A stretch of 63,715 bases of DNA, filler included, from Dugesia japonica (Eukaryota), in assembly GCA_001938525.1 (NCBI GenBank). It is 5 parts of 5 records of this genome, joined end to end, with 100 filler letters (N's around TTAATTAATTAA, not from the genome) between each part and the next. Parts side by side here need not be neighbours in the genome. Positions count along the whole stretch, not along the records: positions 43,362 to 52,776 come from MQRL01595011.1; 4 more parts are not named here. One strand, 5' to 3'. The position numbers and the translations under genes were made by a program. Positions 27,840 to 63,140 of the stretch are shown in pieces. Under the pieces are notes generated by a model. That model was given only the letters and a program-made list of their open reading frames with translations, searched no databases and was not told the DNA's origin. Positions within the stretch are counted from its first letter, which is position 1, and the number at the start of each line of letters is the position of its first letter.

Positions 27840-28300
27840 AATGGGAAAACTTAAACACAACATGGACAGATCCCAAAATCTCAGCAGGTTTTTGAAGCGT
27901 AGACAAATTGATAAAAGCAGCACAACAAGAGCATATAAAAACATGATATTGGTGATTTATGGCAAATGGATCTAATGGAGATGATTCCATATTCAAAAGT
28001 TGATAAAAGGTACAAGTATATTTTGACATGCATAGATGTATTTAGTAGATTTGCAAGAGCTGTTCCAGTCAAATCAAAATCTGCTAATAATATAGAACCA
28101 GCAATCAAGTCAATGTTTAAAAATGCACATCCAGATAATTTACAAACGGATTTAGGTAAGGAATACTACAATTCTTATGTAAGACAGCTTTAAGATCATC
28201 TAAAAATAAGCCATTATAGTGTATTCTCACAATATAAAGCTGCAAATGTAGAGAGATTTAATCGTACATTGAGAGATGCATTGAAAACGTTCTTGGCATG
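27840..28300 (+). pseudogene. Polinton integrase, internally deleted and 3' truncated
   Basis: WQMDL, ILTCIDVFSRFA, LQTDLGKEYYN, VERFNRTL. Confidence 0.9.
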
Positions 28301-35621: not shown

Positions 35622-35750
35622 TTGCAATATGAACTAAAATTTTTGTAGAAATAAAATTTAGTAGAATTACCCTATTAATCTTGATTTGATAATTTTTATT
35701 GTTAGTTTAGGTCTTTTTATGCTCTAATTATGCCTGTTAAATAAATCGTT
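35622..35750. repeat. 129-bp direct repeat, copy 1 (copy 2 at 37666-37794)
   Basis: Ungapped alignment with 10 mismatches; brackets the REL retrotransposon exactly. Confidence 0.9.
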
Positions 35751-37665
35751 TACAAAAAATTTAAGCTTTATTTATCAATAAAACAGGATGACTAGGCCGT
35801 GCATTAAGTCCAAGTAGGTATAAACGAATCAATAACCTTAACATTTTTCTTTTAGCAATTTAACTTTTTCTAACAGCCAAGTTCTAACAAACTTAGCTCA
35901 AACATCATGGAAGAAGAGTACAATCAATTGTATTGTATCCGGCTTAGTTGATCATATGATCCAAAAAATACGATTACTGGTTTTGATGACTTTTTCTATA
36001 AGACCCTGTGCGATGTGCTTAATTTCTCTGTTTTTGAGTCCAATTGCTTTGAGAGCTCTTTGATTGGCTGGATCCCATGATCCCAGGGTATCAAGAATTA
36101 TTGCATCGAGTGTAACCTTCTTGTGTTACTTGGCCCCAAGATCCTTTCAAACTTGCTCATATATAATTTTGTTGTCTATTCTAACTTTCTTGAAGCCTTC
36201 AATAGAATCATAGGGTACTTTGACGTCCAAAATGTGAACCTTGTTGTTCCTATTGCTAGTAATAATCAGATCCGGCTTCAACTTGGTTTTAAGGCCTTAG
36301 AGTGAGCAATCATACTGTACGTTAAAGTCCCATTTCCTGAATATTGAGGCCGTCTTCTCCAAAATTCTGTTGTGTTTGTTGTATTTCTGATTTTCATGGC
36401 TGGACAGTGATTAAAGATGTGCGTCTGTGTTTCAGCATGAGTACCACACTGCCTGCAATGAGTAGGCATATTCATTTTGAGCGTGAAAGGGTTGTAGTTG
36501 GTTCTGAGAAGGTTATTTTTTGCTCAGACCATGAATAAAAACCCTCTCTGAGACATTGATTTTTTCATGAATTTACTACTATAGTCAGAAGCAGCCATTT
36601 TATTTGCGATGAGACCTTATGATCAGCATAAGCAAGGATGGTTGCATTGAAACCAGAGTTTATAAAAGGGAATTTTGTTGCAGTATTCTTGATTATGAAA
36701 TCAAAAGTAAGGCTGAATAGAGTCATTGACATAGAACATCCTTACTTTACACTTTTATGAATTGCGATATTGTCAGTGTTGATGTCGAGACAGCTGTAGC
36801 TAGTATATACATCAGTATATAGATCTCTGAGAAGATGAATAGTATCACAGTGGAGACCCATTTTCTTCAGAGTATTCCATAGTAATTCAAGAGGAAGACT
36901 TCCAAAAGCATCAGCAAGATCTAATCAAGTCAAATGAAGATTTGTCTTTTCTCTTTCTGCTTTTTCCTTGATTATTTGGATAGTAGCGTTGTGTTGTGAG
37001 CAGCCATNNNNNNNNNNNNNNNNNNNNNNNNNNNNNNNNNNNNNNNNNNNNNNNNNNNNNNNNNNNNNNNNNNNNNNNNNNNNNNNNNNNNNNNNNNNNN
37101 NNNNNNNNNNNNNNNNNNNNNNNNNNNNNNNNNNNGAATCGTCTTCCTTTCCAGGTTTGAGTATAGGAGAAGTGTAGAATCTTTTCCATTGGTTTAAGAA
37201 TTTTTTTGTTTAAGAACTTTGTTAAAGAGTTCTTTAAGGAAACAATAACTATCGTCTAGTTTGGCCAAGTCTGAGTAGCTGATCTTGTCAAGACCAGAAG
37301 AAGATTTGTTAGCACAGCTAAAAGCATATTCAATTTCTTGAATAGTGATTTCGTTGTTGGTGTGGAAATCTTTAGAAGCAGGCAGTATATGATTTTTAAG
37401 CAGATTAAAGTCGAGATCTTTTGGTATAATCTGAGTAAATTCTTTGATGATGTATTCTTTAGTAGGTTAGTCGTTACAAGACCCTTTGCCGCGAATATAG
37501 ATTAGAAGCAGAAGCTTCGCACTCCCAAGAGCGCCTCTGGAAGCACCTGCTCGAATCGCTCGCCGACGTTATCCGGTGGAGCTGCGTAAGCACATACTTT
37601 TGGCGCCACTCATGATTGATAAATCAACGCAGACCCCTCGTTCTTGACACGGTGGCGGCCTTCTG
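35751..37665 (-). mobile_element. R2/NeSL-type non-LTR retrotransposon with restriction-like endonuclease, internally deleted
   Basis: RT remnants SSGLDKI, LDLADAFGS, LAYADH; CRQCG..ETQTHIFNHC knuckle; KPDLII..ILDVKVPY; LGSW; 3' AATAAA; GC-rich 5' leader. Confidence 0.88.
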
Positions 37666-38449
37666 TTGCAACACGAACTAAAACTTTTGTAGAAATAAAA
37701 TTTAATAGAATTACCCTCTTAATCTGGATTTGATCATTTTTATTATTAGTTTTGGTCTTTTTATGCTCTAATTATGCATGTTAAATAAATCGTTCATTTC
37801 TGTTTAGTGTAAAAAATAAAGCTTCCAAATAGTCCACGCTGCAGTCAGAAAATTATTCAAAAATTTTTATTGGAACAACATTTTCCAAAAGATGCGAACG
37901 GTAGCTATTGCGCCTAAAAAAGCGTAATCGCCTCATAAAAAGTGTAGATAGTAAACAAAAGGCAAGATGAGCTAGCAAACCGGGTGAAACAGAACCTCAC
38001 CCATAAAATCGATTTCCAAAAAAGATATATCGCGGACCTGTTCACCCCCTTAGAGCTCAAAAATCGGGTCCGGTGGAACAATCATGATGACGAGGCCACA
38101 TTCAACTTTTCGTATGACGAGCCAGCTCAGTGGCTTGACCCTGAGGCTCTAAACTTTATGTAGATAAAAAATGTTCGTAAAAAAAATTTATCTTACCAAT
38201 TCATTGTTAAACTTTTGAGTCAGTTAAATTTAATTGGGGAAATCTTGAACCCGAATCAAAGGTGTACAAGTTTGAACTCCAAGTAAGTGTTGGGAGTCAA
38301 TCATTTTGCACTGAAAACCTAAAATGAGCCTTTAGGTAAATTCTTCAAAGGGTCCCCCGAGGGCTGACTTTCCCCTCAGCCATAAATTTCTACACTTAAC
38401 TCAGGTGGAACCCCAACACTACTATAGGTGAACCTTTGGTGATGTAAGT

Positions 38450-39520: not shown

Positions 39521-40827
39521 TTAGCAGAGTTATATTTAGATTTATTAATAAAATTATTATTATCTAAGCATTTTAAGAGTTCATTTATATATAAGTTTAG
39601 ACGATAATTAGAATTATCTTAAATTTTATTGAAGTTATTAATTTTAGGATTTTTAAAATTTCTGGAAGCAGATTTATCAGAAAAGGATTCCGCATTAGTA
39701 AATTTATTACTGTTAACGTCAGATCCAGTAGATTTGTTATATTCAACATATCCAATTTTTTATTGTTTAAAAATTTTTTAAACAAGACATTTTAAAATTT
39801 ATATTTGAACTTAAAGTTAATATTATTATTACTAATATTATTATTATAAAAATAAAACCTACTAGCCCAATTGCGACAAGTATTTTTATAGAAGCACTTG
39901 TGCTAGTAGAACATATTTTAAAATTATTATTGTCGTCAGTTTTAGTGATAATTTTATAATTTTTTGCTGGGAACAGCATTATAGGAATTAGTATTATTGG
40001 AAAAGTTACTGGAATTTGTCGCCATAATTTTGTTAATAAATTAAACTTGCTTATTGAATTTATTAACTTTAGTAATTAAGTTATTCTTTTATTTACTCAT
40101 GGTTAAACGAAATGTTGATAGAATTATAAGCTTAGCAATTTAATCCAATGTTTTTCTTTATTTGACCATGATTAAATGAATTTTTCTTGAGACTATGATA
40201 ATAGTGTTTCAGTTATATTTTATTTGTTATTACTAAATAAGTTTTTATTCATTTTAATATAGGTAAATATATAGGTGTAAGTATAGGTAAATTTCAAACT
40301 ACTTTTTGGAATTACCGAAAAAATCTAATAAGAAATAATTGAATCAAATACATTTCGTCATCTTTCTTTTATCTTATAAATATTATGACAGCCGTCAATA
40401 ATGAAAATTCGATAATGAATAAAATCTTTTACCATTGGTTACTTAAATTTCAATTGGTTTAAATATATAATGACTTGACAGTGCGGATAAAAATCAATCA
40501 ATAGGCTTTACTCAAAGAAGAACAGAATACTTTAACAGTTTTGGAATAGAATCAACTGTTTGATATTTACGAATTAAAATTTAAATTGAAGTGAACCGTC
40601 CCCGAAAAATTTATCTATTGACCACAGGTTAAGAAACCCTGCTCTAAAGTATTAATCAATGAAAATAACAAATTGAGAAAAGAAAAAGAATTGAAAACAG
40701 ATTCAAGAAAAAGTTAAATAAAACCTCGAACCCCAATATATATATTCATATATATTCAAAAACATATTGAATAAATTGCTTCGAACTATATAAAATGACA
40801 AACCGCAATTTTTTAAAACATTCGTTT

Positions 40828-40869
40828 GTAATGCATGTTTCGGACAAATCTATGTCCATCATCAGTTAC
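40828..40869 (-). ncRNA. Minimal type I hammerhead ribozyme, core variant (U16.1 to C)
   Basis: GTAA-CTGATGA-T-GGACATAGATTTGTCC-GAAA-CATG-CA-TTAC. Confidence 0.75.
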
Positions 40870-41522
40870 TGCGGTAAAATAAGAAGGAAATTGTTTATAT
40901 ACTGGCCAATAAAACCTGTTACGTAATCAATCCAATAAAATAAGATTAAAATAAATTTAAAATTGAATGTGTCCATTTGAGTATTAGGAATCGGATTATG
41001 CAACCCAATTCTTAAAGCCTCACACGCAATTCTTTCAAAATAGTTACCAAAACCGTTTTTCCAAACTGTAAACTCATCAATTCTTATTTTGCTTTTTCTA
41101 TTTATGCAGCAACAGGCATGATCTAAACCTGAACTTTTCCTATTCAATTGCAAATGCTCGCTAACACGTGTACGATAATGACGATATAACTCTCCAATAT
41201 ACGTGGCATCACACCCGTTACAATTGAATTGATAATCTAGGTTAGCGAGCAAAGCTTTTGGTGTAGTAGATTTGTTGCTTAAATAACTTGAGGTTTTCTT
41301 TGAAGTGAAAATTAATCTAAATTTATTATCATCAAAATATTTCATGCGAGAGCATTTTAATGATTTAGATCCTTCCCAGAATTGGGTTTGATAATCCGAT
41401 TCCTAATACTCAAATGGACACACATTCACTTTTAAATTTATTTTAATCTTATCTTATTGGATTGATTACGTAACAGGTTTTATTGGCCAGTATATAAACA
41501 ATTTCCTACTTATTTTACCGCA

Positions 41523-41564
41523 GTAACTGATGACGGAAATATATTTGTCCGAAACATGTATTAC
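41523..41564 (+). ncRNA. Minimal type I hammerhead ribozyme
   Basis: GTAA-CTGATGA-C-GGAAATATATTTGTCC-GAAA-CATG-TA-TTAC: stem I GTAA/TTAC, palindromic stem III, GUA cleavage triplet. Confidence 0.85.
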
Positions 41565-41619
41565 AAACAAATGTTTTAAAAAATTGCGGTTTTTCTTTAT
41601 ATATATATATATATATATA

Positions 41620-43190: not shown

Positions 43191-44925
43191 GTTAAGTAAT
43201 AATAAGAGAGAGAGATAAGTAATGATATCAAAAATGTGTATTTCACAACAATGCTATGTGTNNNNNNNNNNNNNNNNNNNNNNNNNNNNNNNNNNNNNNN
43301 NNNNNTTAATTAATTAANNNNNNNNNNNNNNNNNNNNNNNNNNNNNNNNNNNNNNNNNNNNACAATAAATCAAAACCTCAAATTCATCTTCTAAAATTGA
43401 CTTGATACTTTCAAAATGACAATTACACTCACGCCATGAAAATTAAGTATAAGGATTCAACCACCACTATTTTATTCTGGTCATCGTGTAACACCTGATA
43501 CATTTATTTCAATTTCAGTCATCGATATTTTGTCTATATTCATCACCTCTTTACTATAGCAATCCATCTCATCCACGCTNNNNNNNNNNNNNNNNNNNNN
43601 NNNNNNNATGTCTTTATAATCGTTAACATCATATTCATTATCATCTCTCTTTAGTACCATCTCTCTAAGACTCGTCGTCAAATCTCTTTATTAACACCTC
43701 TCTCATCATCATCATCACATCTCACTAAATTCATTAAAAATCAGACCTTCATCTACATATAAATTTCCTGTCATAATTCCTTCTTGTTCATTATAAATAA
43801 TAATATTTTTCTNNNNNNNNNNNNNNNNNNNNNNNNNNNNNNNNNNNNNNNNNNNNNNNNNNNNNNNNNNNNNNNNNNNNNNNNNNNNNNNNNNNNNNNN
43901 NNNNNNNNNNNNNNNNNNNNNNNNNNNNNNNNNNNNNNNNNNNNNNNNNNNNNNNNNNNNNNNNNNNNNNNNNNNNNNNNNNNNNNNNNNNNNNNNNNNN
44001 NNNNNNNNNNNNNNNNNNNNNNNNNNNNNNNNNNNNNNNNNNNNNNNNNNNNNNNNNNNNNNNNNNNNAATTATAATAATAATACAATTCTTGTGCTTAA
44101 ACCTGACTCATAATCTAATATTTTATTATTTATAATGATCATTATGATTTATTCTGTTTTTCTCCTATAATTTCTCTCTAAAATATCAACATATTTTAAT
44201 ATAATTATTTGTTTTAATCTTTCTTTTTCTCTCATCGATATAATTTTATTTTTAACACATGGTTAACTTCATCACATTTATACAAATTATAAATAATAAT
44301 AGATATTCCTTGTTCTATTGACATTCTTCTTTTCGATCACTTTGACTGATTTTCTGAACACATTTTACCTTAACCATCTAATTATTGATTATCTTCAATT
44401 CTTGTATTTTTTAATATGTTATCAATTCTTCGTTTACTCTACAGCTTTTTACAACTTTATTTTCTTTTTATTGTTTTACCCTAGATTTTGTTTGATATTT
44501 CTTACACTTTTTAACTTCAGTTATTATTATTTAATAATCGTGTCTTTATTTTTTCATAGATCAATATTTCTTTTATTTCTCATTATTTATTTATTTATTT
44601 AGTTTTTTATTTCATTTTCTTATTACTCTTTAATTTATTTCCTTCTATAATTTTCATATTTTACAAAATGCTGTTTCAGCCAAACAAATTACTGAGGGCC
44701 CACAAAATTCCGCCCCGGAATTTATCCTGGTTCCGTTACTCTCTTTACACACGTTTGTTTCCATTTGGTTACTGCCGTTTACAATTCGTTGTTTGTGGTG
44801 GTGTTTGAAAAGATCCCACAAGGCAAGATACTCATTAGTCATAACAGAAAGAAAAAACAAAAGAAATAAGCAATTAATAAAAATACTTTTATTCTACATA
44901 TATGTTGGCATTATTTAATAGTTAA

Positions 44926-45015
44926 GGATCACAAAATAGTTATTGTCAATTGAATCACAAAATAATTATTGTCAACTGGATCACAAAATAGTTATTTTTA
45001 ACTGGATCACAAAAA
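44926..45015. repeat. 26-bp tandem repeat, ~3.5 copies
   Basis: GGATCACAAAATAGTTATTGTCAACT units. Confidence 0.85.
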
Positions 45016-48000
45016 CAATTAATTTTACTGTTTATCAAAACTATTGAGTTTTAGTATGTTATTGTTGCTTTTCACCCCACTGATATGCTATTAATAAATC
45101 ACCATTTACCCAGTCTCGAAGTGATCCATAATGTCCGATTCGCATGTTTTGATTTCTTTTACGTAACACTTGATGAGGTTTCATTTCGCATTTATCTGAA
45201 TTCCAGAGGAGCTTCGTTCTACATAGGATAGTATGTCTCTTTTTCTTCAATTTTCTGACTTCTTTTTATCCATAATGCTTCAAAAATCCGTAAGGGTCAA
45301 ATACCCATGTGTGCGATACGTATGATATTTGTTTTCTTTGACAGTGGTCCTCCTTTTCGTCCCACACTGGTCTGTGCCGATTTTGTACTGAATATAATAT
45401 ATGGAAGTATTTATAGTAACGCAGAAGAAAAACTCGGGATATCTCGAATAGCCCGACTGTCTTTTGATGGTATAATATCTCTCTTCTTTCTCTCTCCGGT
45501 TCTCCAATTCTTGTTCTATATGTTATTAATTGTATTTACTGTTGTTGTTGTTATGTTATATCAATAGTTACTCGCCCTGATTCTTGGAATATCTTGACTC
45601 TCATCGCTCGTCCTTTGACCTTTATCCCTGGTTTTACCCACGTATAGTTTTCTGTTTTCTCGTATTGACCTCTTGTTGTCATAATTCGTTGCTATCCTTT
45701 TCTCGATATCGTCTGTAATTTTACTTCAAATTTCGTTATATATAATCGATGCTCTGTATGTACATCCTCATAATCATAACATTCATCTCCATTGATGACT
45801 CGTAACATAATCACAATTATTGTCATATATATCCATACTTTTCCTGGAAACAACATTTGACTGGCTCCTCTGTGCGTTTCTGTTTCGATTTCTCTTCGTT
45901 TATCCGCTTTTTCTCCTTTTAAAGTGATCTTTATCAAAATCAGTGACTTTGTTTTTTGACGTTATTATAGCTGCTGTTATTACTATTATCCAATACTTGT
46001 TACTCTCGTTTTTACTCTTATCCGTTATTAATTTTAGACCCATTGTCCACATATTTTCGCTCTTAATCACTTTTCCCATTACTAATGCTAGTATTACATA
46101 TAGCCATTTATCCATCATTTTGACTGTTTTATTTGCTCCCCTGGTTGCTGTTGTAGTCTCGTTTATTTCATATAATTTTGTCGCCTGAATTCCAATCTTT
46201 GTAGGCCATGCCATTGCCACTATTGCTATTATGCGCACTATGAATATTATTATCGGTATCGATGCGATAGATGTCCAAGCAATTTTCTTCCATTGTCTTC
46301 CGAGTGACAGCTTTTTCGTTACTAGTACCTCCTCTTTCTCGTTTTAATAGATTGGCTCAATTTCCCCCATTATTATTTCTTTTTAGATTCCACTGTCATA
46401 TTTTATTACTGGTATTTCTGGTAGAGGAATTTTTGTCTCATTTTCTCTTCCTCCGCTTCCATTCTTTCAAGCTCTTCATGTTCTTTTTCGATTTCTTTTT
46501 GCTTCCAAGTTTTTTATTTCTCATCATATTGCCATTTTTGTTGAATTTCTAAACACCGCGGTATCATATATTCTGAATCCTCTTCGCACTATTTGGTGAT
46601 GTCACACTGGTCCTCTGTATTGTATTCAAATTCTTCACACCATTTTGTTATATCCCACTGATCGATAATTTTGTCAGCTTCTTCCATTTATTTTTGTTTC
46701 CAGATTCGGTATTTCTCAGTATGTCGTAATTCTTCATAAATTCTCCACCATTGAAGTGACACTTCTTCGGGATCCTCTTCGCAACTTTTGATAATGTTTC
46801 TTTGCTCGTCCGTATCGTAATTGGTTTCTCTGTCACCCCATGTCGCCTCGAATCAGTTTGATCTATCATTCTAGGTTTTAATTAAATTTTTTATATCCTT
46901 TTGAATCGTTTTGAGCCCATCTGTCGTTTCTGGTTGTTTTGTTAATATCAGTTTTTCATAATCGTTGTCACTGACCTCTTAAGTCGTCCTCAGATTTCCT
47001 CTCTGTGCCTTTATCACACCGATTCTGTGCTTGTCGCCTTTTATTTCTATTTATTCGATTTTTTCTCTTCCGTCTCCTTGGTCTTTGTTTTTTTCTTGGC
47101 TCATTATGTCCTTTATGATTGGTTTCACTTTTATTCTGATCAATTTCTAGTTTCTCCATTAACTTTTGACATTCAATTTTTAATGTTTGTAAGAAAAGTA
47201 GCGATCCGTCTCGATTTTCAACTTAAGTAAATGTTTCGAATCGTCTCCACATTGCTACGATTTTCTGTCCGTCTTCTTCTGCCGTGTTTAGTTCGTTAAT
47301 TTTTCATCTGTGTCTTCCATGAAATCCATCACTTCGTCTCCTAATTTCAATAAATCGACGTCCTCGTCGGTATTTGTTTGTAATTCCATCTTAATTAATC
47401 TTTGGTATATCATTGCTTTTTAAGTTTTCCGCTACAATTGGACATTTAGTTGGTTTTTTTGATACACATCGATTACACTTTTGAGTTTCTGGCTGTTCTG
47501 GATTCGTATCTATCATATCACATATTTTCTCTTCAGCTTCTTTCAATTGTAGTCCCATTATTATTATACATTTCAGACATACCTATTTTAACTTGTTTTC
47601 AGTTATTACAATCTTGGTTTCTTTTCGATTTTTATTACAATTATTGCATCTAATTTTACTTTGAATTTGGCTATTTGTAAGATCTTGTTTCTTTTGTTTC
47701 ACTTTTATCCATGACGACGGAATCTCTTTGCGTAAATTAATTTGACAGCTTCCACATTATTTCTTTGTTGTTGTCGTGTCAATTGGACATTTTCTAAGTC
47801 TGAAGTTTTTACAATTTCCTTCCAAGTTCCATGGTGAATGTGCTTCTTTGTTTTTGTCGATGTCGAATCGACTTGGTTTATTAAATGTCCATTTTCTTGT
47901 TGCCTCATTGTAATTCTTTGTGAAATTCGTAAGCATGGTTTACACAGCGGTTTCCAGTTGTCTGCGGATCCGTGTCCTTTCATTCCGTATTGTCCACATC

Positions 48001-48258
48001 TTAGATTGCCGCAAATTTGATTGTTGCTAATTTACATCTTGATACATACACGATACTTGGTTTCTTTAGTGGTTTTCAAAATTCTTTTAATTTCAGATTT
48101 GTTGCCGTTGTTTCGATCACCATATATGAGCTTTTGTTTGGTCTCTTTAATTTATCTGTCTTTCCAATATCAATTGTCGGTGTGTTTACTAACACAAGAT
48201 CCCCATTTTTAAATGTATGAGCGTCTGCTTTACAATCGTGTAATTCTTTGTAACTTTC

Positions 48259-50932
48259 TTAACTAAATCTTGCATTTGCTTCCGCCAATTTCCACATTTC
48301 CTTCATTTGATCTTTCATGCCTGTCACATAATCGTCTTCATCCGTGTACTGTGAAATTGGTGGTTGATATTCCAGATCAATAGGCATATTACATTCTCTT
48401 TCATACATTAAACTAAATGGTGTTGCTCTTGTTTTCGGATGGACTCCCATCCTATATGCAAAAGGCATAAATTCAAATGTTTGTCCCATTCTCTTTGATC
48501 CTTTGAAGCGTAGCTCGATAGCATTCTTGTTAAAGTTTGATTGAATCTTTTTGTCATTCCATTCATCTGCGGATGATATGCCGATGTCCATAGCTTGTAA
48601 ATATTGAAGAAACTTGTAACTTCTTTCATTAATTCACTTATAAAGTTCTTCCCTTGATCCGTTAAAATTTTCTTTGGAGGTCCATAACAACTAAATACTT
48701 TGTTAACTAACACTTTGGCAATTGTCGCTGCTTTCTGATCCCTCAACGCAAATGCTTCTGAGAATTTTGATAAATAATCTACTACTGTTAGAATGTATAT
48801 CTTTCCACTGTCCGTTGGTGGTAATGGTCCAATTATATCCATTGCTATTATATTCATTGGTGTTGCTGGCACTGGAATTGGTTGTAGCGGAACTTTGAAT
48901 TTCTTTCCTGTTCCTCTCCTTGCTGCGCATATCTGACATTGTTCTACCCATGTTTTTACACTTGTCGTTATATGTGGCCAATAATATTTTGCTCTCAATT
49001 TTGATTCCGTCTTTTTAGCTGACATATGCCCTCCTAATATTCCATTATGATATTGCTCCAAAATCTTTGCTCGTCTATTTTTAGGTATTACTGACAACAT
49101 TTTGTCGCTTTCTTTCATCATCAACCATCCATTGACTATTGCGTACCGTCCTCCTCGTTTCTTTAAATGTTNTTTCATGCTTTTATTACATTCAACTTTA
49201 CTCAGATCGTAATGTGTTAGATAATCTAGAATTATCTTAATTTCTTCATCATCATCTTGATCCTTTTTGAGACCTGTAAAATCTTTGTTCTCTGCTAATA
49301 TCATACATAAAGTTCGGATTTCTCGATTCATTAATTGCTGAATATTAATTACTTCATTATCTTGTATTTTAGTTCTAATTCATCTGTGAATCTCGCTCTT
49401 GACATATAATCTGCATTTGCATTTGCTTTAACAGATTTATATTTTACTAAAGATGCATATTCTTGTAGCTTCATGCCCCATCTCGCTATTCGATTTATCT
49501 GTAATGGTTTCTGTCCGATCATTGTAAGCGGTGGATGATCTGTATACACTACTAATTCATGTCCAAGTATCGGTTGGTTGAAATGTTTTACTGCTTTTAC
49601 TATTGCCAATATTTCTCTCTCTGTTGTACTATAATTCTTTTCTGCACCTTGTAAAGTTTTACTAAAATATCCGATTACTCGTTCTCAACCCTCTTCGTCC
49701 AGCTCCCATTGCATATCCACTTGCATCTGTTGCTAATATAAACGGTTTTATAAAATCTGTTTGCACTAATATTGGTGCTGTCATTAATTTTTCTCGTATT
49801 ATCTCGAACGCTTTCTGATGCTCGTCTGTCCAAGTAAATTTGACATCTTGTCGCACTAGTGACTGTATAGGTTTAACTATTGTTGCAAATCCTTTTATAA
49901 ATTTTCTATAATAATTTGCCATGCCTAAGAATACTTGTACATCGTTTACGTTCTTCGGTACCGGCAGTTTTTTTATCTTTTCAATATTTGCTGGGTCTGG
50001 TTGTTTTCCTTGATCTGATATTAAATGGCCCAAATATGGCACTTGATTTTTTGCACATTCGCACTTTGTAGGTTTCACTTTAAGGTTTCACATTCTTAGT
50101 CGCACAAATACATTTCGTAAATTTTTTAGGTGCTCCTCGCATGTTGTTGAGAATATCAAAAAGTCGTCAATATATACTCTGTCAATATTGGTGATTCAAT
50201 TTTAAATGTTCGATCTATCTCTTCTCCATTCGGGTCTATGTCGATTTCCAATCGTTTCGCCATTTCACCTTTAAGTACGTCCATTAATTTTTCTTTATTG
50301 TCATCGATTGTCTCGTCTATTTCGTCCATTGGCGTTAATTTTCCAATTTTTGAGTTTGGATATATCGTAATATCCTTTTCCGTCATATTTAATACATTTA
50401 CTGGTACTTTACCTGCTTCCAATATCTTCACAACTTCGTTTGCTGCTGGTAATTTATATCGCTTTGAGAAAGTTTCATGAGGTTCAAATATCATTTGTCC
50501 TTCCCAATCTGCATCTGTCTTTGCCATATAGAATACCTGACTCCTCCTTGGTATTACTATCTTTTTATTCGTATACACTCCATTATCTTTTGTATGCAAG
50601 TTCTCTCTAGATCCGGTAATTTGTAGAGTGTTCATATCTAATACTGCATTCTTCATTATTAATGGTATCAAATCTGTTCTAATTATGCACTTTTCGCTCA
50701 TTTTCATTATTATCATTTCATGCACCACATGTATGTCTTGGAATTCTACCTCGCATTTTAACTTTCCAATTATATGTAGCTGACCTCCGTCTGCCACCAC
50801 GACTTCCGTGTTTGAAGGTGTGATGTACGGCCATTTTAATGTTGTAACTAAATCACAATGTAGTACTGATATTGTTGCACCCGTATCCAATAACGCTGAT
50901 ATTTTCCGTCCATCAACTATTATATCTATCAT
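48259..50932 (-). pseudogene. pol: Element B pol: protease 2, dUTPase-like spacer, RT (N-terminal half deleted), RNase H, integrase
   Basis: ALLDTGAT; IVIPRRSQ..VPVNVLN..ITIYPNSKIG; YIDDFLIF, YLGHLIS, FLGMANYYRKFI; LATDASG, VYTDH; H..GGH..CQIC, MDIIGP, ILTDQG, TKRFNQTL. Confidence 0.93.
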
Positions 50933-52776
50933 TACTCTCGAACCGGCTTCAGAACTGTTGTAGTATAAGTATTCTGTCTTGATTGGTCGTTCAAACTCAC
51001 TACAGGACTACCTCTTCGTCGTTTTTCTGGTTTTTCTAATTTGTTTTCTAGTTGTTTTGATTTACTCCTTCTTCTACACAAATATTTTTTATGTCCACTT
51101 TTTCCGCATAAATAACACTTTGGTTCATTTTTGCAAGTTCCAATAGTATGTCCTGTTTCTCCGCAATTATAACAATGATGTATATTTTTCATACAACGCT
51201 TTGTTGTATGGTTTATTAAATTACATTTTTCACATCGCTAAGTAAGTTTACCATTTTTCCAACAATAATCTGATTGATGGTTAATCTTACCACAATGGAT
51301 ACATCTTGGATGTCTGAACTGAGATACTCGATTACTACTAAATTGATCCAAATCTATTTGTCCATCTGGAAATACTTTTGGCATTATATCTAACCCAATA
51401 ATACATTCAACCATAATATTATCCATTATCTTCATTGCGTGCATGAATCGTCCTCGTGACGTTAGTACTAGACAATCTATTTCTCCGACGGATTCTATTG
51501 CGTCGCCAGTTATCATTATTAGTTCATCTGATGTTTTTCGTATTTTTAATTTATCTACTTCATATAACACCTTAAAATTTATTATCGAGCTACTTGCACC
51601 TGTGTCTATCATACAATCTAAGATTTGACCATTTATTGTTAATCTTTTCATTAATACTTTGTATCCTAGTGATAACAATGGGGCTAAACTTTGTGTATCA
51701 CCTTTTCTGACATCTTCTTAACTTTTTGATATAATACTAAATTTCTTCAGTCGTAACAGTGTAGTTCGATTATCTTGTTCATCTTTTTCTTTAGGAGTGA
51801 GTGGAAGTGCACATTCTTTGCTCAGATAATGATCTTTAAATGGTTTCAGTTACTTGTTTGGATAATAGACTATATTCATCATTCGCTGTTTTTCTTTTGG
51901 GTATAATCTCCATCTATCTTTCCACAACTGTTTTGGTTTCTGTATTTTACCAAGTCGGTATTGTTGTCGTTTTTCTTGTTCCGCCACTTCTTTTGATAAT
52001 TCATCATATACTCCAAATTTGTCTGTTTGATTTCTTTTTTCGTAGTAAACTCCTTGCCATTGTGATGCAGGTGGTATACCTTTTGATTGATTCATTAACC
52101 ATTGATCATATGCTGGTGTTGATGCACCTTCCATTATTTCTGGTAATTCTTCATATACTTCCTCATCAATGACCGGATTATATCCCTTTTTCTCGTGATA
52201 TGCATCGGTCCATAGTCACGCTTGTTGTACGTTTCTAGTTTGTTCTCTTACTTTTTGTTTATACTCTGGCGTTGACTCTCGAATCTTCGGTCGATTATTG
52301 TCTGATCCATCACTGTCATCGCTACTACTATATTGCCTTCTCCATGGTTTGAATACATCAAAAATATTTGTCTTCTTTTCTTTCCGTTTTCTCATATGAT
52401 TACATATTGCACGAATTTGATTGATTATCTGTTCATCAGTTCCTCAAATTTGGCTCATATATCGCAGTAATCTCCTTGTGTCATGCAAATCGTTTGAATG
52501 ACTACTTAATACTGCTGATTTTGCCCAAGCCGGAAACCATTCCATCATCATTGACCAGGATAACTTTCTTTCTTTCTTATATAAATCGAAACACGCTAGT
52601 AATTGTGTTAATATCACTTTAACTATTTGTAATATGAAAATTATTCCTAACAATCCTGCCATTGCTTGTCCAAAACCGATACATTGACACCTCATTTTCT
52701 TTATCACATTTACTGTTGCCGTCTGAAAATGATCTGGTGATAATAGTAATTCGTAGTTTGGTCTGCCGTCTGATGT
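50932..52776 (-). pseudogene. Element B ORF1: envelope-glycoprotein-like C-terminus, linker, aspartic protease 1, four CCHC knuckles (five in-frame stops, no frameshift)
   Basis: ORFs 52444-52707, 51850-52134, 51238-51678 and 50932-51192 share one frame. FGQAMAGLLGIIFILQIVKVIL; CMIDTGAS..CIIGLDIM; CIHC, CEKC, CYNC, CYLC knuckles. Confidence 0.8.
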
Positions 52777-54395
52777 NNNNNNNNNNNNNNNNNNNNNNNN
52801 NNNNNNNNNNNNNNNNNNNNTTAATTAATTAANNNNNNNNNNNNNNNNNNNNNNNNNNNNNNNNNNNNNNNNNNNNTTAACAAGAAAATTATTTAAATTA
52901 TGAAAACAAAATAATGTCCATGGGAACTAAGTAAATAATTAAAAAACTGATGTAATTATTATGTTATGTATTTGTTATTGAAGAAAACTGCATTTCGGTA
53001 TTCTTAATCAATTTTAATTGGTTTGAATTTTGGAAAATCCATTTGTTTAAATGGTTTTATCAAGTGACTGACTTTTTTTTAAATTGATTGTTTTANNNNN
53101 NNNNNNNNNNNNNNNNNNNNNNNNNNNNNNNNNNNNNNNNNNNNNNNNNNNNNNNNNNNNNNNNNNNNNNNNNNNNNNNNNNNNNNNNNNNNNNNNNNNN
53201 NNNNNNNNNNNNNNNNNNNNNNNNNNNNNNNNNNNNNNNNNNNNNNNNNNNNNNNNNNNNNNNNNNNNNNNNNNNNNNATTATAATTCATTATAATTAAT
53301 TATAAATTATTAAAATAAATAAAACATACCTGAATTCTGATAAATCACGTAAAAACAAGTAATTAGCAGAAAAAATCTCATTAGAAATGAAATTCAATTC
53401 AAATTTCTATTTAGTTATACAGAAACAATAGTAATGTTGTGTCATTGATAAGCATAACAAATATGAATAATACAAATATGGAAAACCAAAATAGTTAGAT
53501 GAATGAAAATTTGCAAAAATGATCGTTGTTTATTATTATTGTTTGAAAAATTGAATGTTTAAAGATTGACTGTTAAAAATTTGATTTTCAAATATTGAAT
53601 AAAATTTAATATTTCTCAAAATTTAAATAAACTTTCATCATATTTTTTTATAATTTTTTCAAATTATTTTCGAATTAATTTAAATTAAAAAATATCTTTT
53701 AAAGAAAGATTTCAGTTTGAAATTTCATAAATTTAAAGTCATTATTAAATCAATCTCACAAGTCTAACAAATTGAGGTAAATAAACTAGGAGAATGTTAA
53801 ATTACAACAATTCCAAGTATCATGTCGAATGTAATTTGTAATTGATTGATTCATATCTGCTTAACTGTGTGTTTTGGTAATAACTTAATTACGAGAATTG
53901 TAATCTAGTTTACAAATATAATAAATTATGCCTTAAATAAAATAGATTTTTGGAAATCCAAATATCGAATAATTGTAGGACAAACGATTTATAATAAATT
54001 TTTTTAATAATTTTATTTTTATTATTTATTATTATCTACAAATTTAATGATATTACTACATTGTATTATAATTTCATATGCTCATTAATTTGCCAAATTA
54101 AACATGTGATTTTGTAGAATTGTAATGCATGATTACATTTAGAGGTTGACAAATTAGAATACGTACTGGTCATACTAAGTTTATTCAGCCATTTTAACTA
54201 ATTTGAATTATCATAATTATTATTGACGATATCGAGGTTTGCCAAACTATGTCACGGAACAGACTACTTTAAGAGATAATAAATACAAAATCAACATGAT
54301 CAAATATATCAATTAAATTTTTATATTTAATTAAAATTAATAATATTTATAACAGTCAGATAATTAATAGGACCGTGATTCTGCCTGCTTCAAAA

Positions 54396-60269: not shown

Positions 60270-61530
60270 TATCCTTAATTTAGAAAGATCAAGAACTGTT
60301 TGACCAATGTAACTAGGTTTATTCAAACAAACCATTTCCTTATTTAGTAAGACAGCAATCAAGTCATCATCTANCTTAATAGATTTCCTAAACCCTGGTT
60401 TTGACGTATAAGTTACAAGGTTTTTAGCCGAATACCAAAGTCAAAGATTCATACAATTCTTAAGCTTTTCTACAGACTTCCCATAAAGACTATTATTCAA
60501 GAGTTTATAATGATTTTTATCGAGATCAGAATTACTTTGTGCTCTTAATTGGGTATTATCATCAATATATTTTTTAAAAATGTTATCTTGAGAAAACTTA
60601 ACAGCTCTATGAACTTTATTTACTTTGACACCCAACTGTAAGCATATTTTCAACAATCTCCAATGAACAACATAATTATTCTTAGGATAATGTGTAAGCA
60701 ACAACGTTTTCACCTTAGATCTAGGAGGACTTTGGTGTTCAACAGCAACTGGAAGATCAGATAAGTAATTATGTAATGCAGTAGGAATTTTTACATCAAC
60801 CTCAAAGGTATATCCATAAGGTAAAGAATCCAAGTCAAGAATCAAATAATCATTCAATAAGTCATCAAAACCTGAATAAATCCATTCAAAATCTTTATAA
60901 GGAAGTTTTTGGTTTAAAGCGCAACCATACAAATTATTTATATCAATATATAATAAGTCAGTGTTTTTATCAAAAAATACATAATGTTTGTTAACAAAGG
61001 TAAGATCTCCTCTAATACCATCCTCAAGAAAGTGTACATATCATTGTCAGTCAATAACTGAATTGGATCAGTTAAAGTCATCAAGGCAGAAGCCCATGAC
61101 ATGACTGGAATTCCAAAGAAATTAAACGGTTCAAGTCTATTGTGAGTTAAGTATTTTTGTTTAAATTGCTGAAAAAAATCAGCAAAAAGAAAAACATCAA
61201 ATTTTAGATAGACCATCATATTGTCAAGTAGGTTATCACATACAGTAATTTCTCACATTTCAAGAGCTTTATTGCAAGATTCATCTGTATTTCATTCATC
61301 TGCATTTCATATGTGTCCTCTAATATTTGCAAACTTGAAGCAAACTCATACGGAATGATCCCCTTTGATTTAAAAATCCTATCATCATTAAACTCAACGG
61401 AAGTTAAAGGTGTAGAATGTATAGTCCTAACAGCAGCATCAAGAGAAGAGTTAATAAACTGGTAACTATCAATGAACTTAATTACTGTATTACCTTTATG
61501 TGCAATGAGACAGAGGAATTTCTCAGTTGA
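60270..61530 (-). pseudogene. Polinton pPolB, exonuclease to polymerase part
   Basis: KFIDSYQF, KGIIPYEF, YLKFDV, NNLYGCAL..KLP, YKLLNNSLYGK, LNKPSYIGQTVLDLSK. Confidence 0.92.
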
Positions 61531-61534
61531 TTTC

Positions 61535-63140
61535 TTACTATTAGAAGATGGACAAAGGTATCATTATTGGCCGTAATAAATCTGGATAGACTTGTAAATA
61601 CAGACATTAAGAAGAATGGTGTCCAAATAGTGTCAACATGGTGCCCTAATTGTCTGAATGGATTCAGAGATAATACAGCTTTTGAAAAACATGATCCTCA
61701 ATGTAGTAAAATCCAAACAGGTACCACGTTATATAACATGCCGATCGATCCTAACTTAGAATTTACGCACTATTCAAAAACTCTAAGTTCTCCATTCGTC
61801 AAAAACGCTGATTTTGAATCAGTATTATCACCAGATAAAGATTATTATCAAAAACATTTACCTATTACAGCCGGACATTTGCTAGTTAACAATTACGATA
61901 AAGAAACAAAATATCAAGAATTTATCTGAAACGACAGTGTTTTTAAGTTTTTTAAAGAGATTGAGGAAATCAGCAAAAATAATTTATATGTATAATAGAA
62001 AAAACCAGATGAATATTGTGAGGGGTTTTGAAACGTAAGTTGAAATTTTTGTGTGATTGGTTATCATATTTTTAAAATCTTTTTTTAAAAGAGAGATTTA
62101 AATTATTGATGAAATATTTAAATAAACAAATATTTGGTTTAAGGATAAATGAAAATTATTGAAATAAATAAAATTTTTAAAGTTAGTGAAAATTTTGACG
62201 TAAAATTAAGTAAATAAATATAAAGTATTTATTTTTAATTTTAAAAAATATCACAAATTAAAACACGGGATTTTAATTTGTTTGATTAAAAAATATTGTT
62301 GGTTATAGTTTTTATATTAATAAATCGTTGTAATAAATTTGGATTCTGATGTTAATGATTCAATGAGTAGTCAAAACTCAACTAAAAAATAATTTCTCTG
62401 GATCAAGAAATTTCCTTTGCTGCTACCAAAACATGTAATTTATGTGAGAAATTATTAGTAAATCCTGTTAGAGACTACGATAATTTTACAGATGAATATA
62501 TGGATGTAGCATGCAGCAGTTGCAATCTAAGCAGAAAACTAAATATGCAATTATCTGTTGTATTACATAATTTAAGAGTATATGACTTGCACCATATTCT
62601 TAAGCATATACCCTGTCAATTCACACATTGGGACCTACGCTTCGAATCGTTACCATATGGATACACTCTATAAGTTGACAATGAGATTCCCAACGAACTT
62701 CACTATTATCTCAGTTACTTGTCTATTGCAGCCGAACATTAATGTGCTCCAGGAAGTAAAGTCAAGAAATTAATCTTGATTCATTATCCAAAGTTTAACT
62801 ACGTAGTGCAATGGAGAATACTACGAATTTACTTGCAATTAGGTGTACAAGTAACAAATGTTCACAGATTTTCACTAGACCGTATTTTCAAGCAATACAT
62901 CGATAAAAACATCAAATTAAGGGCTGAAAGTGCAAATTAATTGAATACAAGTTACTATACGCTCATGAACAATTGCTTGTACGGTGAACCATTTGTAAAT
63001 CTAAAGAAAAGAATAAACTTGAGAACCATCAGTTGTACAGTTTCTTAGGACCAAAAGTCGCATTAATCAATAATGATGACAAAAGAGTGTGGACTGACAA
63101 AAACATAAGCATATTATACGGGCATTATTCTATATCGACA
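61535..63140 (+). pseudogene. Polinton pPolB, second relic (N-terminal region plus deleted C-terminus)
   Basis: WCPNCL..H...C, ADFES, CNLC..VRD..ACSSCNL, LHNLRVYD, LMNNCLYG, DDKR..YGHY. Confidence 0.88.

Follow-up and report, generated by a model that had tools for sequence, protein, structure and literature searches.

The window analysed here is the whole stretch of 63,715 nucleotides from Dugesia japonica (GCA_001938525.1), which consists of 5 parts; positions 43,362-52,776 represent MQRL01595011.1. This part carries the remains of a retroelement on its minus strand, with the following features given from the scaffold edge inward.

52492..52776, minus strand: C-terminal end of a Monjiviricetes/chuvirus-type (gB-like) envelope glycoprotein (PF24664, identity to relatives, hydropathy)
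51661..52491, minus strand: hydrophilic linker of 277 residues, predicted to be cytoplasmic, with four stops (GRAVY, stop statistics)
51376..51654, minus strand: protease 1, an extra retropepsin with DTGAS and IIGLD motifs (PF13975, E 2.7e-5, below cut-off; alignment with lineage proteases)
51076..51303, minus strand: four CX2CX4HX4C zinc knuckles (motif scan)
50660..50938, minus strand: protease 2, the retropepsin in pol position, in another frame in the window copy (PF13975, E 1.6e-6, above cut-off)
50315..50659, minus strand: conserved domain between protease and reverse transcriptase (RT), which may have a dUTPase-like fold (tblastn to P0008, P0019, P0046 and P0051)
49376..50177, minus strand: RT remnant from the YIDD motif, connection and RNase H, frameshifted (profile and homology searches)
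48010..49289, minus strand: integrase with H2C2, core and C-terminal part, frameshifted near 48460 (Pfam, homology, tree)
45047..48009, minus strand: decayed 3' coding extension (translations, hydropathy)
44069..44704, minus strand: putative 3' LTR start at 44704, where TG follows a G-rich tract (sequence by eye)

The frame that holds the envelope end begins at the scaffold edge (52776), which adjoins the joiner N44-TTAATTAATTAA-N44 at 52777-52876, and runs for 614 codons to a stop at 50932. Five internal stops interrupt it, at codons 111, 187, 309, 353 and 513 (first bases 52446, 52218, 51852, 51720 and 51240), and the remaining five frames of the same DNA contain 23-61 stops each. A preliminary description of the locus had reported this long frame with its five stops, and in it a TM-type segment, about 250 hydrophilic residues, a DTG protease and four CCHC knuckles. 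The coordinates and the stop count were confirmed, and all of these parts were located. The same description had taken every stop for the same C>T transition, which finds no support at 51720, where other copies show another kind of change; 51720 was the only one of the stops among the 40 rows of this comparison that were listed, with 1077 further rows behind them. The window copy is dead, as it carries stops and frameshifts and has lost most of its RT.

The envelope segment spans the membrane-proximal region, a TM helix (52665-52609) and the start of the tail, and is truncated by the scaffold edge. Hydropathy gave a single hydrophobic helix at residues 38-56. Residues 9-68 matched model positions 521-580 of 653 in PF24664 (Monjiviricetes_fusion) with an E-value of 1.4e-7 and 30.3 bits, above the cut-off of 27, and the whole 614-residue frame scored 26.2 bits, slightly below it. 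This segment had been matched by eye to the membrane end of a chuvirus-type glycoprotein, and the profile search thus bore out the homology on which that reading depended. The assignment to the gB/class III (chuvirus-like) type is by sequence alone. The segment is 51% identical to the corresponding part of P0008 and 32-36% identical to those of P0018, P0019 and P0021, and fuller relatives matched PF24664 with E-values from 1e-77 to 3e-95. The possibility that the envelope end is the tail of a gene begun in the element's own 3' ORF, as in a tandem or permuted copy, was rejected because the 3' ORF has no PF24664 match and the envelope of the relatives lies upstream in the same ORF.

The linker is coding beyond chance: its 277 codons contain 4 stops, where shuffled sequences averaged 21.5, and none of the 2000 shuffles had 4 or fewer. 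It has a GRAVY of -1.2 and a hydrophobic fraction of 0.26 (26%), compared with 0.25-0.30 in the post-TM linkers of relatives and 0.41-0.44 (41-44%) in two capsid segments. No Pfam or PDB match and no capsid signal were found in the linker, and none of the protein searches that were run returned a homologue of it. Protease 1 follows at about residues 375-467 of the frame, and the knuckles begin at residues 492, 515, 535 and 554; their best PDB match is a retroviral nucleocapsid (E 7.8e-5). Directly after the knuckles lies a second DTG protease that the preliminary description had overlooked and that starts pol. Protease 2 and the spacer are about 31% identical to P0008 over 217 residues; P0008 is the best match for this part as well as for the envelope end. 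The two proteases are 23% identical and both keep the catalytic motifs; they do not group together in a protease tree, which is itself unresolved (1 of its 14 branches starred). The frame breaks near 50994, between the knuckles and protease 2. A search around the frame overlap for an X-XXY-YYZ slippery heptamer found none, which leaves a programmed -1 shift without support. The break ahead of pol coincides with an indel between the window copy and other copies, as seen in contigs from 4 of 4 runs.

Behind the proteases the order RT-RNase H-integrase is that of Ty3/Gypsy (Metaviridae) elements, with the RT partly deleted. About 165 RT residues are absent upstream of 50177, and the contigs of other copies continue unlike the window copy at 50177-50184. 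The integrase matched PF17921 (E 1.7e-18) and PF00665 (E 4.8e-13) and is 42-47% identical to those of lineage relatives. In a tree of 70 rows, built without named reference elements, it fell into a clade of 6 rows (100/98) with the envelope carriers P0018 and P0019; envelope and integrase thus share a common lineage. P0144 carries an envelope yet lies outside this clade. The best PDB match of the envelope-carrying relative P0021 is the Ty3 RT (E 4e-82).

Five stored relatives (P0008, P0018, P0019, P0021 and P0144) have the envelope followed by protease and RT in a single stop-free ORF, which is the order seen in the window. These ORFs support the earlier claim that a glycoprotein end lies in frame with a protease within a Gypsy element, and together with the integrase tree they rule against a chimera of two elements. 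Where the envelope is complete, as in three relatives, a hydrophobic signal-like segment stands at its start (131-149, 368-386 and 350-368) and a TM segment at its end. P0008, the closest envelope relative, has one protease. P0018 and P0046, each a single gene call on one contig, resemble the window element in belonging to the integrase clade and in having two proteases ahead of RT, with zinc-finger modules nearby; these are C2H2 fingers between or before the proteases, as opposed to the CCHC knuckles of the window, and P0018 has a third protease after the integrase. CCHC knuckles between envelope and RT are present in 0 of 8 lineage relatives. Extra proteases appear to have been acquired by the lineage on more than one occasion (window, P0018 and P0046), each near a different zinc-finger module.

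Protein searches with the frame itself gave few matches. Residues 1-340 returned 1 match among 1533 candidates of near length, and no match was obtained among 945 shorter candidates or, with residues 1-200, among 197 longer ones, the last search being insensitive enough to miss P0018 and P0019. A representative search with the whole of P0008 was dominated by RT, and its top match, P0009, was rejected as an unrelated multi-RT gene call without an envelope. None of the 80 metagenome loci found with P0008 as the query matched envelope, linker, protease 1 or knuckles, and of the 11 pattern matches that viral contigs gave with P0002 as the query, none was a relative.

The element belongs to a many-copy family whose copies have diverged. 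Contigs with 80-99% likeness numbered 453-4845 per run and covered 30 of 30 bins of the stretch in 4 of 4 runs. One contig covers protease 1 and all knuckles (51073-51745), and another, 20 nt away, covers the knuckle tail and protease 2 (50661-51053). Among the 32 pieces listed of 11,654, none bridges the TM segment to protease 1 or the knuckles to protease 2. All 4 runs have loose contig ends at 52542, and summed depth drops 3.4- to 5.5-fold from the envelope end to the start of the linker; therefore some copies diverge just after the TM segment.

Taken together, the locus is very probably a decayed copy of a Ty3/Gypsy element with a gB-like envelope upstream of pol and in the frame of the protease, the intact members of which would encode one long polyprotein. 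The continuity of env-pro-pol is seen directly in the relatives, and in the window family it rests on the kept frame and the copy-specific indel. The polyprotein would run from a predicted gag, off the scaffold, through envelope, linker, protease 1, four knuckles, protease 2, RT and RNase H to integrase. An internal signal sequence would direct the ectodomain of the envelope into the ER lumen until the TM helix halts transfer, which would leave the parts after it on the cytosolic side and attached to the tail of the envelope. The N-terminus of the envelope would be released by signal peptidase, and knuckle module and pol enzymes would be cleaved off the tail by the retropepsins, the extra protease probably serving this release. 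The knuckles would bind the RNA of the element as an added nucleocapsid-like module. The preliminary description had proposed an env-PR-NC polyprotein ahead of pol with no capsid. Its order of envelope, protease and knuckles stands. Its separateness from pol is not supported, as the frame break matches the copy-specific indel. The knuckles, which had been taken for the nucleocapsid, are more likely an added module because they lie between two proteases. Nor is the lack of a capsid established, because the scaffold edge cuts inside the envelope and the expected place of gag is off the scaffold.

A truly capsid-less element, with the four knuckles as the nucleocapsid fused to the envelope tail and RNA packaged at the membrane without a Gag capsid, would agree with the finding of no capsid between envelope and knuckles, with the absence of a called Pfam capsid domain upstream of the envelope in P0018, P0019 and P0144, and with the mere 130 residues ahead of the signal segment in P0018. 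These three relatives, however, are known from gene calls whose start may lie downstream of gag, and in P0019 a CCHC knuckle (residue 31) precedes the envelope. The published elements of the same order were admitted with HHpred-supported GAG only (PMC13524379). With the region upstream of the envelope off the scaffold and none of 8 relatives showing knuckles after the envelope, this reading is very unlikely. It is extremely improbable that linker and knuckles represent a short divergent gag in an ENV-GAG-POL element. That order has been reported for two mite genomes (PMC13524379), and linker, knuckles and protease roughly follow gag-pol order; but a protease sits between linker and knuckles, and the composition of the linker resembles post-TM linkers and not capsid.

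The block of protease 1 and knuckles, perhaps with the linker, might also come from another retroelement, as a captured or nested fragment that became fixed in the family and is dispensable. The divergence of the two proteases and their failure to group, the lack of a match for linker and knuckles in the relatives, and one low-depth contig that skips 51362-52046 are consistent with this. The window has protease 1 ahead of the knuckles, the reverse of gag-pol fragments, where the knuckle comes first. The frame is kept through 614 codons, protease 1 retains both of its motifs, tandem proteases recur in P0018 and P0046, and the contig depth of the block is like that of the rest of the element, all of which make a dispensable fragment unlikely. 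Capture as the origin of the block is compatible with the polyprotein reading, from which this account differs in dispensability alone.

Several described systems resemble the element. Chary and Hayashi (eLife 2026, PMC13524379) have reported GAG-ENV-POL Gypsy elements with a gB-type envelope from nematodes, bryozoans and flatworms, and the architecture is thus not undescribed, as had been supposed. These errantiviruses, especially Platyhelminthes C1a, share with the window element a Gypsy pol, a gB/chuvirus-like envelope before pol and multiple copies. Intact multi-copy ORFs characterise the published group; the window copy is broken, and no full-length one was seen among the many diverged copies of its family. 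The envelope ectodomains of P0018 and P0019 have, by eye, many motifs in common with six planarian C1a sequences (PMC13524379, supplementary file 3). The non-canonical nematode ERVs (NERV clade) of Sacco et al. (2022, J Gen Virol, doi 10.1099/jgv.0.001739) are, according to PMC13524379, metaviruses that captured an RNA-virus glycoprotein and carry ENV ahead of POL. An envelope before pol and a chuvirus-like envelope in a Gypsy element are thus in print, and neither will surprise specialists familiar with the 2022 and 2026 papers. The hosts of the 2022 elements are nematodes, as against D. japonica for the window. These nematode elements reportedly have a continuous gag-env-pro-pol ORF, and we know of no second protease or post-env knuckles in them. 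Dezordi et al. (2020, PMC7642597) have reported Anakin, BEL/Pao elements with a chuvirus glycoprotein, in which the same glycoprotein family was captured by an LTR element of another superfamily. The window element does not have a pol of this type: its Pfam matches are those of Gypsy elements, and none of the Pao-specific families matched at E-values up to 1. The envelope of Anakin is said to be a separate gene after pol. Troyka elements, defined by a CX2CX8-10HX4C knuckle and no envelope (PMC12440569), were rejected as a match, as the window has CX2CX4HX4C knuckles and an envelope.

No description of two divergent proteases flanking a knuckle cluster was found in the literature searched; none of the papers listed contained 'two aspartic protease' or 'duplicated protease', and PMC13524379 alone was listed for 'gag-env-pol', with subscription papers, Repbase and figure supplements outside the scope of the search. 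The main text of PMC13524379 uses 'protease' once and 'zinc', 'polyprotein' and 'frameshift' not at all, and so does not discuss tandem proteases, a post-env knuckle cluster or in-frame fusion. With Pol fused to the rear of a membrane-anchored envelope, its processing becomes a problem. A tentative and rather unlikely solution is that a lineage of env-first elements has evolved multi-protease polyproteins with a division of labour, in which a second retropepsin, which might form a cis pair with the first in the manner of a two-domain pepsin, frees Pol from the envelope tail, and the tail-tethered four-knuckle module recruits genomic RNA to budding sites at the membrane. If true, this would be envelope-anchored RNA packaging, which is undescribed for Metaviridae in the literature searched. 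The many-copy family offers natural variation for studying polyprotein cutting and packaging.

The 3' extension (45047..48009) had no Pfam match above cut-off. It contains a Cys-rich stretch, an acidic repeat and a hydrophobic segment (46343-45903), and ends in some 250 residues headed by a signal-like segment (45874-45047). No second LTR copy is present in the window, and the 5' end of the element is off the scaffold. In 4 of 4 runs the summed contig depth over the extension was similar, and contigs cover the possible LTR down to 44500, the limit of the stretch compared. A second predicted membrane protein lies after the integrase.

The env-protease-knuckle feature is real. The minus-strand frame that begins at 52776 is 614 codons long and has five stops, where the other frames have 23-61, and its linker by itself is open more than chance allows (0 of 2000 shuffles). 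Translated with X at stops, the frame encodes the following.

Features of the minus-strand frame from 52776, by residue of the frame
9-68, minus: PF24664 Monjiviricetes_fusion (E 1.4e-7, 30.3 bits, cut-off 27; model positions 521-580 of 653; scored on the stop-free first 110 residues)
38-56, minus: TM helix
about 375-467, minus: retropepsin (protease 1)
492-567, minus: four CX2CX4HX4C knuckles

The frame is terminal on scaffold 43362-52776, whose edge cuts env, so that about 520 PF24664 model positions are missing. Stop counts, PF24664 and motifs thus bear out the preliminary description of one frame with five stops, a glycoprotein end, a protease and four knuckles. The single protease of that description is present before the knuckles, but a second retropepsin (protease 2), which begins at 50938 in a different frame (PF13975, E 1.6e-6), had been overlooked. 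The two proteases share 23% identity, and DTG is kept in each. Downstream of protease 2 come a conserved spacer, an RT remnant, RNase H and integrase. Relative to the database relatives P0008 and P0018, the window lacks about 165 RT residues upstream of 50177; contigs of other copies continue unlike the window at 50177-50184, and the RT deletion is therefore peculiar to the window copy, which is inactive.

A near-length protein search has yielded P0008 as the sole match among 1533 candidates. This protein, 1023 residues without a stop, consists of an env end, a 356-residue hydrophilic linker, a single protease, a spacer and RT, and shares 51% identity with the window in env and 31% in protease 2 plus spacer. 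BLAST with env segments has recovered four further env carriers (P0018, P0019, P0021 and P0144) among 150 proteins listed by a representative search, and Pfam, run on 24 of the 150, showed that in all four env precedes protease and RT. In an integrase tree of 70 rows, restricted to stored proteins with 180 or more aligned residues, the window falls in a six-row clade, support 100/98, with P0018, P0019, P0046, P0051 and P0085; the last three start at or just before the protease region, too late to show env. P0144 falls outside this clade on a long branch. A chimera of two elements, named beforehand as a refuting outcome, is disfavoured because env and integrase indicate one lineage, the window grouping with the env carriers P0018 and P0019. 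P0019 (HBK71150.1), an animal-type retroelement polyprotein with env, bears the label of a Flavobacteriaceae MAG protein, likely through eukaryotic contamination of a bacterial bin. Upstream of env, residues 115-290 of P0144 resemble by eye a DEDD-type exonuclease, with no Pfam match.

The absence of a recognisable capsid between env and knuckles, noted earlier, holds: Pfam and PDB searches of the linker gave no capsid match, and its composition is like that of the relatives' post-TM linkers and unlike capsid segments. Pfam called a capsid domain in none of the env-carrying relatives. In P0019 a CCHC knuckle sits at residue 31, ahead of the env signal segment (368-386), which fits a gag-env-pol order. 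Judging from the literature, an upstream capsid would be expected in the window family, and the element is most likely a GAG-ENV-POL gB-type Gypsy element with a putative upstream gag. Sacco et al. (2022) reportedly found a continuous gag-env-pro-pol ORF. Chary and Hayashi (PMC13524379) report gB-type env in GAG-ENV-POL order in errantiviruses of Nematoda, Bryozoa and Platyhelminthes, chuvirus-like glycoprotein genes adjoining gypsy POL, and ENV-GAG-POL elements in two mites; the env-before-pol architecture, previously thought unfamiliar, had thus already been described. The ectodomains of their planarian C1a sequences and of P0018 and P0019 are alike by eye. Identity with Troyka, a retroelement defined by a CX2CX8-10HX4C knuckle and a lack of env (Kojima 2025, PMC12440569), has been rejected, since the window element has CX2CX4HX4C knuckles and an env.

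What sets the window element apart is its protease-knuckles-protease block. Tandem proteases and zinc knuckles are undiscussed in the main text of PMC13524379, and a literature search listed no account of them, though Repbase, the Sacco paper and the figure supplements could describe them. CCHC knuckles downstream of env were found in none of the eight relatives. Two proteases precede RT in two of the five clade relatives: P0018 has two C2H2 fingers between them and a third protease 3' of integrase, and P0046 has a C2H2 finger ahead of both. The protease tree gives no resolved grouping. On the simplest reading, the post-env region would be a hot spot at which protease and zinc-finger modules have been added, with putative roles in Pol release and RNA binding. 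In P0018, P0019 and P0144, env opens with a signal-like hydrophobic segment and closes with a TM. This layout predicts a luminal ectodomain and a Pol tethered to the cytoplasmic tail, and would call for signal peptidase upstream and a retropepsin downstream.

Contigs of four sequencing runs, matched to 44500-52776 at 80% likeness, were placed in numbers of 3039, 3073, 4845 and 453, and every run had depth in all 30 bins. Their likeness ranges from <90% to >99%, and many diverged copies therefore exist, although summed depth should not be read as copy number. One 679-nt contig covers protease 1 and all four knuckles and one 397-nt contig the knuckle tail and protease 2, the two lying 20 nt apart without overlap. 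An indel near 50994, the window's frame-change point, separates the window from contigs in all four runs, and a search for a slippery heptamer at this point gave nothing; by inference, the frame break reflects decay and the family frame continues into pol. The stops had been attributed to C>T changes; at 51720, the one stop of the five among the table rows listed, nearly all covering depth departs from the window, through a change that is not the supposed transition. Against a continuous env-pol frame, none of the 32 pieces listed of 11,654 bridges TM and protease 1, all four runs have loose ends at 52542, and summed depth at the env end exceeds that at the linker start by a factor of 3.4-5.5. 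Several subfamilies alike in env but not in the linker would account for this, but some copies may carry a junction there. In run X6, one contig (depth 264) passes over 117 nt of the knuckle cluster (51129-51247); knuckle number may vary among copies, or the repeats may have misled the alignment.

Beyond integrase, about 3 kb of coding sequence has decayed and gives no Pfam match above cut-off. A second membrane protein appears to be carried here by the lineage. The window's 45047-48009 (-) is a longer decayed equivalent of the relatives' apparent post-integrase membrane protein, for which no Pfam family accounts. A C-terminal TM-like helix is present in all six integrase-bearing relatives (P0018, P0019, P0046, P0051, P0085 and P0144), with a signal-like segment ahead of it in four.

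The window's scaffolds are AT-rich (22-37% GC per 2 kb) and joined by spacers of N44-TTAATTAATTAA-N44. Further RT, RNase H and integrase fragments, from more distant Gypsy elements, occur at 3455-5388 (-), 16986-17376 (-) and 27954-28292 (+). Other elements are as follows.

Other elements in the window
5877-13900 (+), 14212-15158 (-) and 60444-61926: Polinton/adintovirus-like pieces, with the next six features
6871-7353: double jelly-roll capsid
7999-8505: phospholipase A2-like domain
8509-9228: integrase
9232-9630: ATPase-like ORF, by eye
9971-10381: adenovirus protein X-like, weak match
60444-61040: protein-primed polymerase B
35622-37794: 2.2-kb element with 129-nt direct repeats at both ends (92%)
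40787-41605: Penelope-like fragment, by eye

The 2.2-kb element is possibly a deleted non-LTR element. The Penelope-like fragment contains a GIY-YIG-like ORF (40869-41402, by eye; no Pfam match), which is overlapped by 186-nt inverted repeats of 94% identity.
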